Part shown: one piece after another, positions 7,136-61,711 of the stretch
Layout: every line of letters starts with the position of its first letter
Numbering within the stretch: position 1 is the stretch's first letter
NCBI GenBank assembly: GCA_019058245.1
Contig: JAHPZJ010000027.1
Location: forward strand, 16,330 to 80,329
Length of the DNA: 64,000 bases
Reading direction: 5' to 3'
Source: Promethearchaeota archaeon
Lineage (GTDB): Archaea > Asgardarchaeota > Lokiarchaeia > Sigyniarchaeales > SOKP01
Notes under the pieces: model-generated
What the model was told of the DNA's origin: nothing
The model's database searches: none
The model's input: the letters and a program-made list of their open reading frames with translations, nothing else
Program-made: the position numbers and the translations under genes

Positions 7136-9127
7136 ATGTTAGAAACTGAATTTCAAAATAACGAATTTAAAGATACAATAAACGTAGTAATTATTCAAGT
7201 TCTTGATGAAAGATATCTTATAGAAGTTAAAAATATAAAGGAAATTTATGTTCCAGGGGATAATATCATTCCCGTTCCTTTAACAGATAAATCCATACTT
7301 GGTATTATTAATATAAGAGGAGAAATTTATTCAATTATCTCATTAAGACATAATATATCTGATGATAATGATATTGATTATGGTTTATCTAACACATCAC
7401 GGATTTTACTATTAGAATATGAAGACTTAAAAATAGCTTTATTAGTAGATTCCGTAATTGGCGTTAAAAATATTCCCCTTTCAATCTTCAAAAAACAAGG
7501 TACTATTGTAAAAACAAGTATTGATTTCAGATTGATAAAATTAACTGGAATTTTTCAGGATGAAGCACTTATATTATTAGACCTACAAGCTTTAATTCAA
7601 CCTTATTTGAAATCTCAGGTTAAGAAAGTAGAGAAAAAGATAGAACAAAAACCTAAAGTCCTTGAACGTGCTAAAATCCACCCTAAAGTGAAGCCAAAAA
7701 CAACACCAGAACCTAGCAGCATTGAATCAGCTGTTATAATCCCTCAAAAAACACCATCTGAAATGCAGCTGACTAAGATTCCAGTAGAAAAAAAACGAAA
7801 ACAAGTATCATTATCGAATGAACAGCAAGATATTCTTAGAGAGATTGGTAATATAGGAACTGGAAACGCTGTTACAGCTTTATCACGACTAGTTAAAAAG
7901 AAAATAGATGTTACTCTCACAGATGTAGGTATTATACCTTTAAATGAATTACCAAAACAATTTGGTGGTGCTAAAGAGAAAGTATGCGGGATTTTTTGTC
8001 ATATAGATAAACCATCTCAAGCAACTATTTTAAATATTTTTGAAATGCAACCACTAATGAAATTGATAGCACAATTAGCGGGGCCTCAATCTAAGATAGA
8101 TCCTAAAAAGGTGAAATCTAAAAAAGATCTTGATGATTTTGCTATTTCCACTATTGTAGAGATGGGTAATATTATGGCAGGGCATTATGCCTCTGCATTA
8201 GCTGATTTATTAGAAACAAAAATGCTGATTGATATTCCGGAATTTACAATGAGTAAAGCTGGAGAAATTGGAGAATTTCTTTCTAAAGAATTAGAATCTA
8301 TTGCGGAGTATTTTATTATAATAAAAACTTCAGTAAACGTAGCGGATTTGAAACTGACAGGTATGTTCTTCTTTATCCCTGATCTTGAAACGTTAAAGAC
8401 ATTTTTCAATAAATTAGGTATTGAACATGATATACCTGTCAAGATAATGACAACTAAAAGAGCAACTGAAATCCCAAGTATCGATAAGATAAAGCTTTCA
8501 GAAGTGCAAAGAGATGCGTTACAAGAAGTCGGAAATATTGGTGCTGGAAATGCCGCTAACGCCTTAGCTCAAATGATTAACAAAAGAGTAGATATAAATA
8601 TTCCATCAGTAGAGATGGTTGAATTGGATGAGTATGCAAATACTATGAGTAATAAAAATGAGACCCTTTTGGTCGCTTGGAGTAATGTTACTGGTAAAAC
8701 TCGAGCTACTGTCCTGACATTGTTTAATATAAAAGATGCTATTGATATAACCTCAATAATAGTAGATGATAGAGATAAAAAACAAATCGATCTTAGAAAA
8801 AAAATTAGTAAAGCGTCTGATTTTCCTGAGCTTTATCATAGTGCAATATCTGAACTAGGGCATATATTAGGTAGCCATTATGTAAGTGCAATTGGGGATT
8901 TATTAGGTATAAGATTAATGACAGAACCTCCAGATATGAGCGTGGACACGGGACGTCAATTATTTAAAATTTTAAAAGAGGAAATTGGATTACTAAAAAA
9001 ATTATCACTGGTTATTACTACAAATGTGATTATCACAGACATTAAAGTTACTGGTACTTTCTTGTTCATTCCCAACTTAGAAACATTACAAGAATTATTG
9101 GAGGCACTTTTAAAGTTTTATTCTTAA
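7136..9127 (+). CDS. CheW-CheC-CheC fusion protein
   Basis: N-terminal CheW (GIINIRGEIYSIISLR, ALLVDSVIGV), K/P-rich linker, two CheC-family domains (REIGNIG/VEMGNIM; QEVGNIG/SELGHIL). Confidence 0.88.
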   Translation: MLETEFQNNEFKDTINVVIIQVLDERYLIEVKNIKEIYVPGDNIIPVPLTDKSILGIINIRGEIYSIISLRHNISDDNDIDYGLSNTSRILLLEYEDLKIALLVDSVIGVKNIPLSIFKKQGTIVKTSIDFRLIKLTGIFQDEALILLDLQALIQPYLKSQVKKVEKKIEQKPKVLERAKIHPKVKPKTTPEPSSIESAVIIPQKTPSEMQLTKIPVEKKRKQVSLSNEQQDILREIGNIGTGNAVTALSRLVKKKIDVTLTDVGIIPLNELPKQFGGAKEKVCGIFCHIDKPSQATILNIFEMQPLMKLIAQLAGPQSKIDPKKVKSKKDLDDFAISTIVEMGNIMAGHYASALADLLETKMLIDIPEFTMSKAGEIGEFLSKELESIAEYFIIIKTSVNVADLKLTGMFFFIPDLETLKTFFNKLGIEHDIPVKIMTTKRATEIPSIDKIKLSEVQRDALQEVGNIGAGNAANALAQMINKRVDINIPSVEMVELDEYANTMSNKNETLLVAWSNVTGKTRATVLTLFNIKDAIDITSIIVDDRDKKQIDLRKKISKASDFPELYHSAISELGHILGSHYVSAIGDLLGIRLMTEPPDMSVDTGRQLFKILKEEIGLLKKLSLVITTNVIITDIKVTGTFLFIPNLETLQELLEALLKFYS

Positions 9128-23518: not shown

Positions 23519-23620
23519 AGCCCAGTGGTGTAGCGGTCAAGCATCGGGGGCCCTGATAAGTCTAAACGTCTAGGATCTTGGAGATACCCCTGAACCACGG
23601 TTCGAATCCGTGCTGGGCTA
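23519..23620 (+). tRNA. tRNA-Gln(CTG) with 29-nt intron at 37/38 (23557-23585)
   Basis: Acceptor AGCCCAG/CTGGGCT with A1-U72, D arm GTGTAGCGGTCAAGCAT, T arm CACGG-TTCGAAT-CCGTG, anticodon CTG 23553-55, BHB geometry at exon junctions; CCA not encoded. Confidence 0.88.
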
Positions 23621-25299: not shown

Positions 25300-25551
25300 A
25301 TGAAACTGGAACGTATTAAAATTGAAAAAAAAAGATTTCTTACCCTTACGGTTATCTTCATAATAGCAGGGTCAATTCTTCTTGTTTTATCTGGTATTTG
25401 GGTTGTATCATGAGGTGAAATCGTGTATTCTTACGAATATTTAATGATTCCCGCAATAATATGCTATGTGGGGGCAATTGCTTTTTTTATAGTATATTTA
25501 ATAGTAGTTATAATGCAATTTCGAATGAAAAGAATAAATCAAGCAAATTAA
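25300..25551 (+). CDS. Candidate small membrane selenoprotein A (83 aa, Sec38 from TGA 25411-25413)
   Basis: MKLERIKIEKKRFLTLTVIFIIAGSILLVLSGIWVVS-U-GEIVYSYEYLMIPAIICYVGAIAFFIVYLIVVIMQFRMKRINQAN; similarity to the paralogue continues on both sides of the TGA; SECIS-like element downstream. Confidence 0.8.
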
Positions 25552-25586
25552 AAATTATATCGAGAAAATGAGTATATATAAGATCT

Positions 25587-25657
25587 AACTTGAGAAAAAT
25601 GATTTCTATAAAAAAATTTTAGTTATAGGATGATTATCCCCGCAAGGGACTCAAGTT
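25587..25657 (+). promoter_or_regulatory. Eukaryote-type SECIS-like element 1 (3'UTR)
   Basis: Helix I AACTTGAG/CTCAAGTT; core ATGA-T 25599-603 and TGAT 25631-34; helix II TTCTATAA/TTATAGGA; loop AAAAATTTTAG; extra hairpin CCC-GCAA-GGG; T-run follows. Confidence 0.82.
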
Positions 25658-25788
25658 TTTTTATTTATATTTATAATGAATCATAAAAAAATAATCAAGA
25701 ATTTCACACACTAATATTAAAAAGAAAAAACTGATTTATATAGAATAATTATATAATAAATTAATCAACATTTAAAGGGAAAGATTCA

Positions 25789-26004
25789 ATGAAATATAGC
25801 ACAAGTAGAGAAATATTTTCTGGATTTACGGTTTTCTTTGTAATTATCGGTATATGTCTTCTTTTATTATCTGGTCTTATGGCTTGAGGAACACAAGTAT
25901 TTCCATACGCGTGGGTTCCAGCAATTATATGTTTTGTTGGTGCGATAATTTCCTATGATTCATATAAAAAAGTAGTAAAACAAGATTCTCGAAATAAAAA
26001 ATAA
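25789..26004 (+). CDS. Candidate small membrane selenoprotein B (71 aa, Sec33 from TGA 25885-25887)
   Basis: MKYSTSREIFSGFTVFFVIIGICLLLLSGLMA-U-GTQVFPYAWVPAIICFVGAIISYDSYKKVVKQDSRNKK; paralogue of 25300-25551; SECIS-like element downstream. Confidence 0.8.
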
Positions 26005-26053
26005 ATTATGTTCCTAAAGAATATACTGATAAACTCTGTTTAATTGTCATCAT

Positions 26054-26125
26054 TAATCCAAAAAAATGATTCCTATAAAAAAATCTTAGTTGTAGGATGA
26101 TTATCCCCGCAAGGGATTTGGATTA
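26054..26125 (+). promoter_or_regulatory. Eukaryote-type SECIS-like element 2 (3'UTR)
   Basis: Helix I TAATCCAAA/TTTGGATTA; core ATGA-T 26066-70 and TGAT 26098-101; helix II TCCTATAA/TTGTAGGA; loop AAAAATCTTAG; same CCC-GCAA-GGG hairpin. Confidence 0.82.
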
Positions 26126-26134
26126 CATATTTTT

Positions 26135-26494
26135 TTAACCAGTTCTTTTGATTATATGATATCCAAATTTGGACTTTACTGGTTGTGAAATCTCACCTAT
26201 CTTCAAATTCGTGCATGCATTCCAGAACTCCGGAACCATATCTCCTTTAGCAAATTCACCTAAATTACCACCTCTTTTCTTACTCGAACATGTGGAATAT
26301 TGGTTTGCCAATTGCTCAAATTTTTCACCTGCCTTTAAATCCTCATAAATCTCTTGAGCTTTAGTAAATTTTTCTACTAAGATGTGACTTGCTTTAATTT
26401 TTCCTCCACGAATGGGATTCCCTCCTGTTTTTGAGCCTCCTCCTTTTGATTGTGATCCTTTTTGAAATCCCTTTCCATATTTATTTTTTCCCAT
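26135..26494 (-). CDS. Parvulin-type peptidyl-prolyl isomerase with Gly/Lys-rich N-terminal extension
   Basis: ASHILV, YSTCSSKKRGGNLG, MVPEF, PVKSKFGYHII. Confidence 0.92.
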   Translation of the reverse strand: MGKNKYGKGFQKGSQSKGGGSKTGGNPIRGGKIKASHILVEKFTKAQEIYEDLKAGEKFEQLANQYSTCSSKKRGGNLGEFAKGDMVPEFWNACTNLKIGEISQPVKSKFGYHIIKRTG

Positions 26495-26573: not shown

Positions 26574-26990
26574 TTAATTGATTATGAGATACCTGAAATT
26601 CTTAATCTCTTCAATGCTGTTTATTTCGACAACAAGTCTTTGGAATCCTTGAAGAGTTCCATCATAAACCATGAATGTGATAAAATTATTATTAACAAAA
26701 TTTTGGTTTTTACTTACTATTTCTTCTTTATACTCATTTTCAATTCGGTTTAGTTTCTTTTGAACATAATGATCATTTGGAGCAACTATAATCATATTAC
26801 CAATTATATTTTTTGTGATTGGGAGTAACTCGCTAGATGAATCGAGACTAGAGGATATATCCTCTGTTGACATTAAGCGTAATAAAGCATCTCGGATTAA
26901 TTTAGACTTATTATCATAATGATTTTTTGAAACAAGCTTATTTATGAACTTTTTAAGACTCTCGTTAATACTAATACTTATAATGGGCAA
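26574..26990 (-). CDS. Ribbon-helix-helix (CopG/NikR-like) transcriptional regulator
   Basis: N-terminal IISISINESL...YDNKSKLIRDAL RHH plus ACT-like C-terminal domain. Confidence 0.75.
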   Translation of the reverse strand: MPIISISINESLKKFINKLVSKNHYDNKSKLIRDALLRLMSTEDISSSLDSSSELLPITKNIIGNMIIVAPNDHYVQKKLNRIENEYKEEIVSKNQNFVNNNFITFMVYDGTLQGFQRLVVEINSIEEIKNFRYLIIN

Positions 26991-29598: not shown

Positions 29599-30330
29599 CT
29601 AAAAAGAAGATTCTGGGAATATATAAACCCCTAAAAATGATAAGATCATAATTATAGTATTAACTAATATTATAATAATTAACATAGTTAATATTATCCA
29701 ATTCCTTTTGGATGGAGCAGATTTCATAATTTGAGATGTTCCATGCTTAGCTAAAGCTAAGGGAAATAATCCGATAAATGTACCTAATGAAAAATAAAAC
29801 ACAGTAAAAATTCCATCAATAAACCCCAACCAACCACTTAACGAAAATGCTAAACATTGAGAATAAATGAAAAGCTCAAAAATACATGGAGCAAATCCTG
29901 CTAATATCCCAAATAAATAAGGAGTCTTGTTTTTTTCCCAATTAAATTCAAATATTTCATCTTTTCTTTTTGAATGAGGCATATAACCCTTGCTTGCATA
30001 AATAAATAACAAAATAAATCCTGCAAACATGGATGTTAATGCTCCAAAAAAATAGATTACATTTTTTGGTATTTCATGTATTCCTGGTATCAAGAGACGA
30101 GGAATAAAACTAATTAAAATAGTAATGCTGGCAATTAACATATTAGAGGTCATTAATCCTAAGCCATAAAGTACTAAGATAATGAGACTTTTTTTAGGAG
30201 TTTTCGAGATCCCAAATGACCAAAAGAAAAATATTGCTTTATCTTCACAAGGCATTAAAGTATGGAATATTCCTATAATAAAAGCGGGAGCAAAAATTAG
30301 TAATAATGGCTGAGGATTAAATTCTAACAT
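29599..30330 (-). CDS. NicO/UreH/DsbD_2-like membrane protein (metal transporter or sulfite-exporter-like)
   Basis: GIFHTLMPCED and GILAGFAPC motifs, about 6 TM helices. Confidence 0.6.
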   Translation of the reverse strand: MLEFNPQPLLLIFAPAFIIGIFHTLMPCEDKAIFFFWSFGISKTPKKSLIILVLYGLGLMTSNMLIASITILISFIPRLLIPGIHEIPKNVIYFFGALTSMFAGFILLFIYASKGYMPHSKRKDEIFEFNWEKNKTPYLFGILAGFAPCIFELFIYSQCLAFSLSGWLGFIDGIFTVFYFSLGTFIGLFPLALAKHGTSQIMKSAPSKRNWIILTMLIIIILVNTIIMILSFLGVYIFPESSF

Positions 30331-57178: not shown

Positions 57179-59224
<2,046 letters not shown>

Positions 59225-59272
59225 TTCTTAATTAAAAATCTAAAATAATTTAAAATTGAGATGGTGTCATAA

Positions 59273-61711
59273 TTGACTTCAGAACAAATTGAAGAAATTT
59301 TATTAAAAGATGAAATGCAAAGTGCCTACATCGATTATGCTATGAGTGTAGTCGTTGGGAGGGCCATTCCAGATGTTAGAGATGGTCTTAAACTTGTACA
59401 TAGACGTATTATCTATGCTATGGCAGAAAATAATTGGAATTATAATACGTCACATGTTAAATGTGCTAAAATTGTTGGAGAAACTCTTGGTAATTTTCAT
59501 CCTCATGGCGATATGGCAGTTTACAATGCATTAGTTCGAATGGGACAAGATTTTTCTTTAAGATATCCATTAATCCATCCACAGGGGAATTTTGGGTCAA
59601 TAGATGGAGATCCTCCCGCAGCTTATAGGTATACTGAAGCAAGATTGTCTCAAATTTCAAATGAATTAATTGAAGATATTGATAAAGAAACAGTAGAATT
59701 TGTACCTAATTTTGATAATAGTACTGTTGAACCACTATATTTACCAGCGAAACTTCCAAATATTTTGTTAAATGGTACAAAAGGTATTGCTGTAGGAATG
59801 GCAACATCTATGGCACCACATAATTTATCAGAAGTTTGTAATGGTATTATAGCAACTATTGATGAGCCTGATATTTCAATAGAGGAATTAATGGAGATAA
59901 TTAAAGGACCTGATTTTCCAACAGGTGGTATTATTACTGATACTAATGGAATCTCAAATGCATATCATACTGGTAATGGGACCATAAATATTAGCGGCAT
60001 AATCGAAACTGAAACAAATGCGAAAAATACTAGTCTGATCATTACAGAAATCCCATATTTAGTGAATAAAACCGATTTAATTGAATCTATTGCCAGATTG
60101 ATTAAGGATGGTATTCTTAAGGATATTAAAGATTTGAGAGATGAGTCAGATAGGAATGGTATGCGTATTGTATTAGATTTATCTAAAAACGCTCAACCAG
60201 TAATAGTAAAAAATATTCTCTTTAAGAGAACGAGACTTCTCACTACTTTCAACATAACGAATTTGGTTTTAATTAATGAAGGCAAACAACCTAAAATTCT
60301 AAATCTAAAAGAGCTAATTAATGAATATATTGAACATCGATTAATAATAATTCAAAGAAGAACCGAATACCTTCTCAAAAAGGCAAAAGATCGCCTTCAT
60401 AGGGTTGAAGGGCTTTTAATTGCATTAAATGATATCGATAATGTAGTAAATTTGATAAAAAATTCAAAAGATACTAATGAAGCTAAAACTAAATTAAAAA
60501 CAGCGTATAAGCTAAGTGATATACAGGTTCAATCAATTTTGAGTATGCCATTATCAAGATTAACAAATTTGGAACAGCAAAAGTTAATTGATGAGCAAAA
60601 ATCATTACAAGCGAGTATTAAGGAATACAATAAAATTCTGAAAGAAAAACAGGTTCGCTTAAATTTTATCAAAAATGATTTAATGGAATTAAACAAAAAG
60701 TATGGTGATGATAGAAAGACTGAAATCAAAATGGTGGAACATCAAGAAATAAAAGAAATCGAAAAGATTGATTTAATCAAAAAAGAAACCACCATAGTAA
60801 TTTTTACAAAAAACCAATATATTAAAAGAATCTCAGTAGAAGAATATCAAGCTCAAAGACGAGGAGGTCGTGGGAAAAAGAGTATGACTATTCGTGAGGA
60901 AGATTTTATTACAGATCTATTTGTTTGTACAACTCATGATACCATTCTAATTTTTACTTCGAAAGGAAGAGTCTATTCTATTAGATGTTTTGATATACCA
61001 TTACAAAAGCGAACTGCTCGAGGAAAACCAATTATTAATTTTATCCCTCTACAATCAGGCGAAAATATTTCTGCTATGATACCGATTAATAACTTCAATA
61101 CGAATGAAATGCTTATTATGACCACAAAGAAAGGGATTATCAAAAAAATTCCTCTAAAATTATTTTCTAAATTTAAAACCACAGGAGTAAGAGCTCAAAG
61201 AATCAGACCAGATGATGAATTAGTTAGTGTTAAAAGACTCTCAAATGAACTCCAAGATATTTTTATAGCTACAAAATTAGGTTATGCGGTGAGATTCGAT
61301 GAATCAGAATTGCGTGAATTAGGAAGAAATTCTATGGGAGTAAAAGGAGCAGAATTAAGAGAAAATGATGAAGTTATCGATACACTCCTTGTATCTGATG
61401 ATGAGATAATATTAACTCTTACCCAAAATGCATATGGTCAAAGAACATATGTGAAAGAATACCGTAAAACCGGACGAGGGGCAAAAGGAGTTAAAAATAT
61501 AACACTTGATAAAGCTAAAGATGATAAAGTCATTGCTACAAAAATTGCTAAACACATGGACTTACTAATTGGAACAGAACAAGGGCAAATGATCCGATTA
61601 CCTGTTGATTCAATAAGAATAACTCATAGAACTGCTAAGGGTGTTCGAGTCATTAAGCTTTATGAAGATGATTTTGTTGTAGCAATTGGAAAGTGTGAAG
61701 AAGAATCATAA
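59273..61711 (+). CDS. gyrA: DNA gyrase subunit A
   Basis: PDVRDGLK, FHPHGD, AAYRYTEAR (catalytic Tyr), GyrA box QRRGGRG, beta-pinwheel repeats. Confidence 0.97.
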   Translation: MTSEQIEEILLKDEMQSAYIDYAMSVVVGRAIPDVRDGLKLVHRRIIYAMAENNWNYNTSHVKCAKIVGETLGNFHPHGDMAVYNALVRMGQDFSLRYPLIHPQGNFGSIDGDPPAAYRYTEARLSQISNELIEDIDKETVEFVPNFDNSTVEPLYLPAKLPNILLNGTKGIAVGMATSMAPHNLSEVCNGIIATIDEPDISIEELMEIIKGPDFPTGGIITDTNGISNAYHTGNGTINISGIIETETNAKNTSLIITEIPYLVNKTDLIESIARLIKDGILKDIKDLRDESDRNGMRIVLDLSKNAQPVIVKNILFKRTRLLTTFNITNLVLINEGKQPKILNLKELINEYIEHRLIIIQRRTEYLLKKAKDRLHRVEGLLIALNDIDNVVNLIKNSKDTNEAKTKLKTAYKLSDIQVQSILSMPLSRLTNLEQQKLIDEQKSLQASIKEYNKILKEKQVRLNFIKNDLMELNKKYGDDRKTEIKMVEHQEIKEIEKIDLIKKETTIVIFTKNQYIKRISVEEYQAQRRGGRGKKSMTIREEDFITDLFVCTTHDTILIFTSKGRVYSIRCFDIPLQKRTARGKPIINFIPLQSGENISAMIPINNFNTNEMLIMTTKKGIIKKIPLKLFSKFKTTGVRAQRIRPDDELVSVKRLSNELQDIFIATKLGYAVRFDESELRELGRNSMGVKGAELRENDEVIDTLLVSDDEIILTLTQNAYGQRTYVKEYRKTGRGAKGVKNITLDKAKDDKVIATKIAKHMDLLIGTEQGQMIRLPVDSIRITHRTAKGVRVIKLYEDDFVVAIGKCEEES

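Follow-up and report, generated by a model that had tools for sequence, protein, structure and literature searches.

Tandem two-helix membrane microproteins with in-frame UGA codons and 3′ lokiSECIS elements are strongly supported selenoprotein candidates in a lokiarchaeal genus

The window, a 64,000-nucleotide stretch of DNA (G000:C27:16330-80329) from a lokiarchaeal assembly of 3.09 Mb with 29% GC that is 76% complete, holds two small unannotated open reading frames (ORFs) in tandem, each interrupted by one in-frame TGA. Gene A (25300..25551, + strand) encodes an 83-aa two-transmembrane (two-TM) hairpin protein, as judged by hydropathy, charge and a family profile match, and gene B (25789..26004, + strand) a 71-aa protein of the same kind; both end in TAA. 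In gene A, the TGA (25411..25413, +) is followed by GGT (Gly), placing selenocysteine (Sec, U) at position 38 in the context V-V-S-U-G, and in gene B, the TGA (25885..25887, +) is followed by GGA (Gly), giving U33 in L-M-A-U-G. The original prediction for this DNA had described two paralogous ORFs with a TGA-Gly pair between two membrane helices and with similarity on both sides of the TGA. The ORFs and TGA positions were verified, and in the alignment the proteins are about 40% identical, with the likeness flanking the TGA on either side. A cysteine in helix 2 (PAIIC) had been put forward as a conserved redox partner of Sec; it is common to A and B, but Cys occurs there in 9 of 35 family members and 7 of 26 lineages, so that this role is not supported.

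Behind each gene lies a copy of a 55-nt repeat, at 25595 and 26062, the two copies being 95% identical. Each copy is part of a larger element, and the two elements lie 47 and 61 nt past the stop codons. Element A (25587..25657, +) consists of a lower helix (25587-25594/25650-25657), AUGA at 25599, an upper stem of 8 bp (25604-25611/25623-25630) plus U-U, an 11-nt loop of the form AAAAA..AG, the 3′ GA at 25632 and a GNRA-type side hairpin at 25637-25649. Element B (26054..26125, +) repeats this plan, with a lower helix at 26054-26062/26117-26125, AUGA at 26066, an upper stem at 26071-26078/26090-26097 and a side hairpin at 26104-26116. The lower helices of A and B differ in sequence and are both still paired. 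The AUGA motifs are 188 nt (A) and 181 nt (B) past the TGA codons, in agreement with the near-identical SECIS-shaped elements first noticed about 180 nt downstream. In PMC4989117 (Mariotti 2016), the lokiSECIS is defined by AUGA, a 9-bp stem, an 11-nt loop beginning with adenines and ending in AG, and then GA; both copies match this exactly (the ATGA stands at 25599 and 26066, the stem has U-U and 8 pairs and is followed by TGAT, and the loop reads AAAAA..AG).

Genes A and B lie in a variable stretch whose left edge is an intron-containing tRNA-Gln(CUG)-like gene (23519..23620, +), recognized by eye and missed by ARAGORN. In G077 the same tRNA gene adjoins a family locus; there it has an additional T-loop insertion, and directly next to it stands a truncated gene A remnant with an orphan SECIS (L013). 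To the right, a convergent parvulin (PpiC) gene (26135..26494, − strand) is the fixed marker of the locus in related genomes. Also kept at the locus in congeners are a NikR-like ribbon-helix-helix regulator (window 26574-26990, −) and, 3.6 kb away, a DsbD_2-family membrane gene (window 29599-30330, −). The latter could supply electrons, but this is only a lead because the gene is not beside the other loci of the family.

Several lines of evidence bear on whether the internal TGA codons are read as Sec. First, the decoding machinery, whose absence would have counted against the original prediction, is present. SepSecS scores above its cut-off, an elongation factor encoded 5 kb from SepSecS has SelB/EFSec as its best family, the genome encodes a PSTK-like kinase, and a tRNA-Sec(UCA) gene lies directly upstream of SepSecS, outside the window (G000:C14:82523-82675, +). 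This tRNA gene is split by two intron-like insertions, one in the D-arm and one in the T-loop, whereas the copies in G080 and G072 have none. Rfam and ARAGORN overlooked it on account of these insertions, and a search with the tRNA-Sec of G080 revealed it; counts of tRNA-Sec in Asgard MAGs may accordingly be too low. SelD was not found in the 76%-complete assembly, in which its neighbour genes are missing too, and falls in an assembly gap; a Sec-type SelD is present in all five congeners examined.

Second, TGA is otherwise an ordinary stop in this genome: of 1459 long ORFs, 205 terminate with it, and the reading frame then stays open for a median of 9 codons, no longer than after TAA. The five database matches with 'W' at the Sec site, which might have signalled tryptophan in homologues and hence a refutation, all proved to be TGA translated with code 4. 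On the strength of these matches and of the ordinary use of TGA as a stop, we rejected recoding as Trp.

Third, the element is specific and is tied to known selenoprotein genes. A strict lokiSECIS pattern occurs four times in the 3.09-Mb genome and in none of 6 shuffles, and a relaxed pattern 11 times as against 1-5 in shuffles; the four strict matches are elements A and B, the element of a VhuD gene and that of another TGA-containing ORF. A covariance model built from the family's elements finds the SECIS behind VhuD and VhuU of the same genome, and the side hairpin is common to these, excluding the possibility that bona fide selenoprotein genes lack the element. Across 29 family copies, pairing holds in 90.2% of the cells, compared with at most 54% in slid registers, and in 96.6% for the upper stem; both partners vary in 11 of the 18 pairs, and none of 500 shuffles equals this. 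Kinship among the copies somewhat inflates this covariation test. Free folding of the element is unremarkable (z −0.7 to −2.2), as expected from its non-canonical core, and an Rfam search of the element gave no family match.

Fourth, the TGA is retained in diverged relatives. When 154 genomes of the order were searched by profile and by SECIS pattern, UGA-type two-helix genes turned up in at least 15 belonging to the genus and in two belonging to its sister genus; a later search, with six extra members, raised these counts to 18 and 4. Around 40 relatives keep the TGA at a median identity of about 27%, often in tandem arrays, providing the conservation across homologues that a selenoprotein family calls for. 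Our curated set comprises 35 UGA genes in 26 clusters at 50% identity (median identity 27%), many of them found through the SECIS or by adjacency and not by protein similarity. U and G are the only invariant columns among 17 aligned sequences; in the curated set, the residue before U is small in 30/35 and Gly follows U in 29/35. All 35 have 30-49 open codons past the UGA, compared with the median of 9 past ordinary TGA stops, and a SECIS lies 116-948 nt past the UGA in each of the 34 members with downstream DNA, some members sharing one at the end of an array. Beyond the genus and sister genus, no convincing member was found when 400 genomes were searched across the phylum. Eight members came from a set of 1.84 billion proteins, and none from a metagenome pattern scan.

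The arrays themselves are variable. They mix Sec, Cys-loop and residue-free members and reach eight small two-TM ORFs in G072. Two family copies are frameshifted and one is truncated with an orphan SECIS; evidently, the arrays turn over. The loop of two sister-genus members (L132:1504-1719, −; L051:3708-3924, +) contains TGA three times (U-G-U-G-G-U); in L051, the copy also has a one-base frameshift in a T run. Small membrane ORFs in or beside arrays at L039:6457-6654 and 8720-8917 (−) and L043:2822-3202 (−) have a loop Cys pair (C-x-G-x-x-C-P) and no TGA.

Fifth, the codons beyond the UGA are under purifying selection. When six disjoint orthologue pairs are pooled, dN/dS comes to 0.29 upstream of the UGA (Fisher p 5e-9) and 0.24 downstream of it (p 1e-12), which excludes a lack of coding conservation past the TGA, another outcome that would have spoken against the prediction. 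Orthologous array genes of G080 and G072 likewise give pN/pS values of 0.11-0.13, as in ordinary purifying selection. For gene B, the orthologue in G069 is 75% identical and has both TGA and SECIS; pN/pS against the closest orthologue is about 1.25 while neighbouring genes are at 0.11-0.21, and from these sequence comparisons selection at the locus may be relaxed or diversifying.

Sixth, the element tends to be lost with the codon. A same-locus homologue in another assembly has GCA (Ala) in place of the Sec codon; the stems of its element persist and both GA motifs are gone. Of nine non-UGA relatives, five lack the element altogether, in two it is decayed, and in two more, both in G052 (L041 and L088), it is intact. 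Three non-Sec relatives (L073:1465-1680, L149:1158-1457 and L041:6740-6967, all −) use the TGA of the former SECIS AUGA as their stop codon, with the element at intact, partial and gone stages of decay. At one helix-2 position, three genes of a single sub-lineage have TGA where two others have TGT, a Sec/Cys pair of the kind that Sec decoding predicts.

A Cys homologue at the Sec site is the usual computational proof of a functional Sec. The Cys-for-Sec homologues that were sought do not exist at the loop site among the matches from the genomes and the 1.84 billion proteins, where the substitutes are Ala, Glu, Ser or Trp, never Cys. ORFs of 131 aa with four helices were considered as Cys-type ancestors and rejected, as they have no Cys or UGA at the site and are probably matches of hydrophobicity.

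Taken as a whole, the evidence strongly supports real selenoprotein genes, in which a 3′ lokiSECIS lets EFSec and tRNA-Sec read the internal UGA as Sec; in genes A and B, this reading of the internal stop is almost certain. No protein, 75Se or ribosome data are available. The central claim of the original prediction, a family of Sec-containing two-TM microproteins with their own 3′UTR SECIS, is upheld, and none of the four outcomes named as refuting it (no Sec machinery, Trp or other disruption at the TGA in homologues, no coding conservation past it, and an element absent from bona fide selenoprotein genes) was met.

What the proteins do is far less certain. Mean counts of Lys plus Arg in family members are 2.4 at the N end, 0.4 in the loop and 2.8 at the C end. 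An AlphaFold2 model of the gene B product has helices at residues 2-29 and 39-70, with U-G in a turn between two short strands, at modest confidence (pLDDT 73, about 65 at the loop). From the charge bias, read by the positive-inside rule, and from this model, we infer that Sec would face outward and both basic ends the cytoplasm. We propose that the product is a helical hairpin of 63-87 aa holding a small-Sec-Gly motif in a tight turn on the outer face. The helices would be a variable scaffold and the exposed selenol the one conserved chemical group. Because the family lacks a conserved resolving Cys and the site never has Cys in place of Sec, we favour selenium-specific surface chemistry with an outside partner over a thioredoxin-like cycle. 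The selenolate might capture soft metals or electrophiles or oxidants, or form intermolecular Se-Se or Se-S bonds, activities that are inferred and not shown. The genes would be accessory, duplicating, diverging and getting lost in tandem arrays in which one SECIS can serve several upstream genes. This complete account, from Sec decoding through the hairpin to an exposed surface selenolate function, is the one we prefer, tentatively and at somewhat less than even confidence, its chemistry being inference throughout.

A different fate of the same product is conceivable, with TM1 acting as a signal peptide that signal peptidase I removes by cutting immediately ahead of Sec. What remains would be a single-pass peptide of 30-50 aa whose N terminus, a free Sec-Gly exposed at the surface, is a strong nucleophile and metal chelator, and the six members with U-G-H would gain an ATCUN-like N-terminus. 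Such processing is compatible with Sec insertion and in part with the surface-selenolate hairpin. The members have a basic n-region and a hydrophobic core, as in a signal peptide, and their residues from −8 to −4 are more polar; the residue at −1 is small in 30/35, and the −3/−1 pattern stands directly before U in 27/35 (19 of 26 lineages), compared with 2-17/35 at upstream positions. Position −3, however, is mostly Ile or Leu and not Ala, and the counts are overstated, as members are related. Several non-Sec relatives keep small-x-Gly, but this would be explained equally well by a tight turn at the hairpin tip. Cleavage is inferred, and we regard variable arrays of selenium-only surface peptides, without Cys counterpart and released by signal peptidase with a free N-terminal Sec, as unlikely though worth keeping in view; if real, they would represent a selenoprotein chemistry and a gene organization not described in any domain.

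Rather more doubtful is a reading of the arrays as hypervariable cassettes of a surface or immunity type. Like variable membrane genes for immunity or for decoys, they would act against viruses or competitors, with the specificity residing in helices and loop and with Sec as an accessory residue. The tandem arrays of up to eight ORFs with their mixed Sec, Cys-loop and residue-free members, the scattered distribution within the genus, the siting next to a tRNA gene or flanked by conserved genes, the rate of gene B relative to its neighbours and the low median identity would all suit such genes. But the UGA and SECIS are the most conserved parts, in 26 lineages below 50% identity, and an incidental and costly recoding would not persist in this way. 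The orthologous array genes of G080 and G072, moreover, evolve under the ordinary constraint given above, and no toxin or defence gene was seen beside arrays.

It is also quite improbable that the recoding itself is what is selected, as a selenium sink or a selenium-dependent switch that yields the full hairpin or stored selenium when selenium is available and a one-helix stub when it is not. The absence of Cys among the substitutes is what one would expect if selenium or readthrough, not thiol chemistry, were what matters, and members with two Sec residues or the U-G-U-G-G-U loop, as well as the varying copy number, can be read the same way. One Sec per 70 residues would nevertheless store selenium poorly, the constancy of its position and of the Gly context implies a role in structure or chemistry, and no regulator or target is linked.

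That no selenoprotein exists, the TGA being a true stop or Trp and the repeat a terminator or mobile-cassette repeat, is very unlikely. At L087, the stems have persisted (50.6 bits) after loss of the core, suggesting that the hairpin may also have a role at 3′ ends, and some SECIS copies lie behind non-UGA genes. Against this stand the ordinary use of TGA as a stop, the purifying selection past the TGA, the decay of the K-turn core once the UGA is lost and the presence of the same element behind VhuD and VhuU.

A seleno-lipoprotein, with x-x-small-U-G as a lipid-modified lipobox bearing Sec for Cys, is highly improbable: a strict lipobox ([LVI][ASTVI][GAS]C with U for C, some as L-S-A-U) occurs in 12/35 members as against 0-7/35 at other positions, but 23/35 do not fit (gene A does, gene B does not), Lgt is absent from the five genomes searched, lipoproteins are rare in Asgard archaea, with AliA reported from Euryarchaeota and DPANN (PMC12462473), the second TM helix is already an anchor, and Cys would do equally well yet never occurs.

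With the surface-selenolate hairpin as the preferred reading, the family can be compared with known systems. PMC11227280 (Huang 2024) reports seven families from 409 Asgard genomes, which were searched for homologues of families already known; a 2026 review (PMC13188914) counts eleven archaeal and 119 prokaryotic selenoprotein families. The two-helix family matches none of these. The seven Asgard families are soluble enzymes or thioredoxin-type proteins; the original prediction, too, had contrasted soluble archaeal selenoproteins with tiny membrane proteins. Searches with 17 members gave no consistent Pfam or NCBIfam match, only scattered single-member ones, and no homology to the known archaeal families (SelD, FrhA/VhuU, VhuD, HdrA, PrxL, AhpF-N, DsbA-like, FdhA, FwdB, HesB-like). 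Foldseek against the PDB returned nothing at E<=0.001 and generic helix pairs only, and an Atlas search with P0010 nothing at >=0.9. A literature search found no report of a two-helix family, most subscription journals being outside its coverage. The recoding system has been described before; neither the protein family nor its arrangement in arrays has, as far as searchable papers go.

The lokiarchaeal lokiSECIS genes (VhuU, HdrA-VhuD, PrxL; PMC4989117, PMC11227280) share with the two-helix family the type I SECIS, its position, the machinery, the use of one SECIS by tandem genes and, in some relatives, UGA stops that overlap the AUGA. The GNRA side hairpin, present in the elements of the family and of VhuD and VhuU here, does not appear in the descriptions consulted. 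The reported Asgard families are soluble or thioredoxin-type and have Cys homologues, whereas the two-helix family is a variable membrane hairpin of 70 aa, in arrays, with no domain match and no Cys homologue at the site. Published Asgard selenoproteomes, built by homology to known families, cannot see such a family.

The family brings membrane microproteins into an archaeal inventory made up of soluble redox enzymes. It also runs counter to the practical rule by which a functional Sec is expected to have Cys homologues; as there is none at its Sec site, such genes escape searches built on Sec/Cys pairs. As substrates for testing lokiSECIS function without SBP2, it offers short genes that carry a 70-nt SECIS of their own, natural variants whose core has decayed, and SECIS-sharing arrays.

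SELENOK and SELENOS are small single-pass membrane selenoproteins with Sec near the cytosolic C terminus, decoded, like the two-helix family, through a 3′UTR K-turn SECIS. The loose resemblance to them that had been suggested holds for size and not for topology (two TM helices, with Sec mid-chain and inferred to be outside), and there is no Pfam match. Bacterial membrane and peptide selenoproteins (PMC13188914: MerT-type transporters with C/SxxU, YeeE/YedE with GUxSG and a selenobacteriocin with SGUG) likewise have Sec in or near membrane helices or a small-U-G motif, but use an in-frame bacterial SECIS, and two-helix members have no Pfam or NCBIfam match to them. No peptide-modifying enzymes were seen beside two-helix arrays.

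Three further TGA-containing candidates were observed outside the family. A one-helix GG-U-G-C membrane selenoprotein candidate with a strict lokiSECIS (L024:3182-3442, −, corresponding to G000:C13:146181-146441) has matches in 33 of 53 congeners. It resembles the two-helix family in being small and membrane-anchored, with a basic N terminus, Sec after TM1, often U-G and the same SECIS subtype in the same genus; it differs in its separate loci, a polar Gly-rich linker, UxC/CxU motifs, a variable amphipathic tail and being commoner, and no homology between the two is detectable (hhalign probability 7%, 8 columns). At L025:3291-5286 (−), corresponding to G000:C10 ~58250-60290, two paralogous ORFs have adjacent TGA-TGA codons (C-U-U and D-U-U) and a lokiSECIS each, and the fragment tested had no Pfam match. 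Finally, the SECIS model gave a 43.5-bit match at G000:C15:24364-24450 (−), with AGGA instead of AUGA and an apical mini-stem, directly behind a long TGA-containing ORF.
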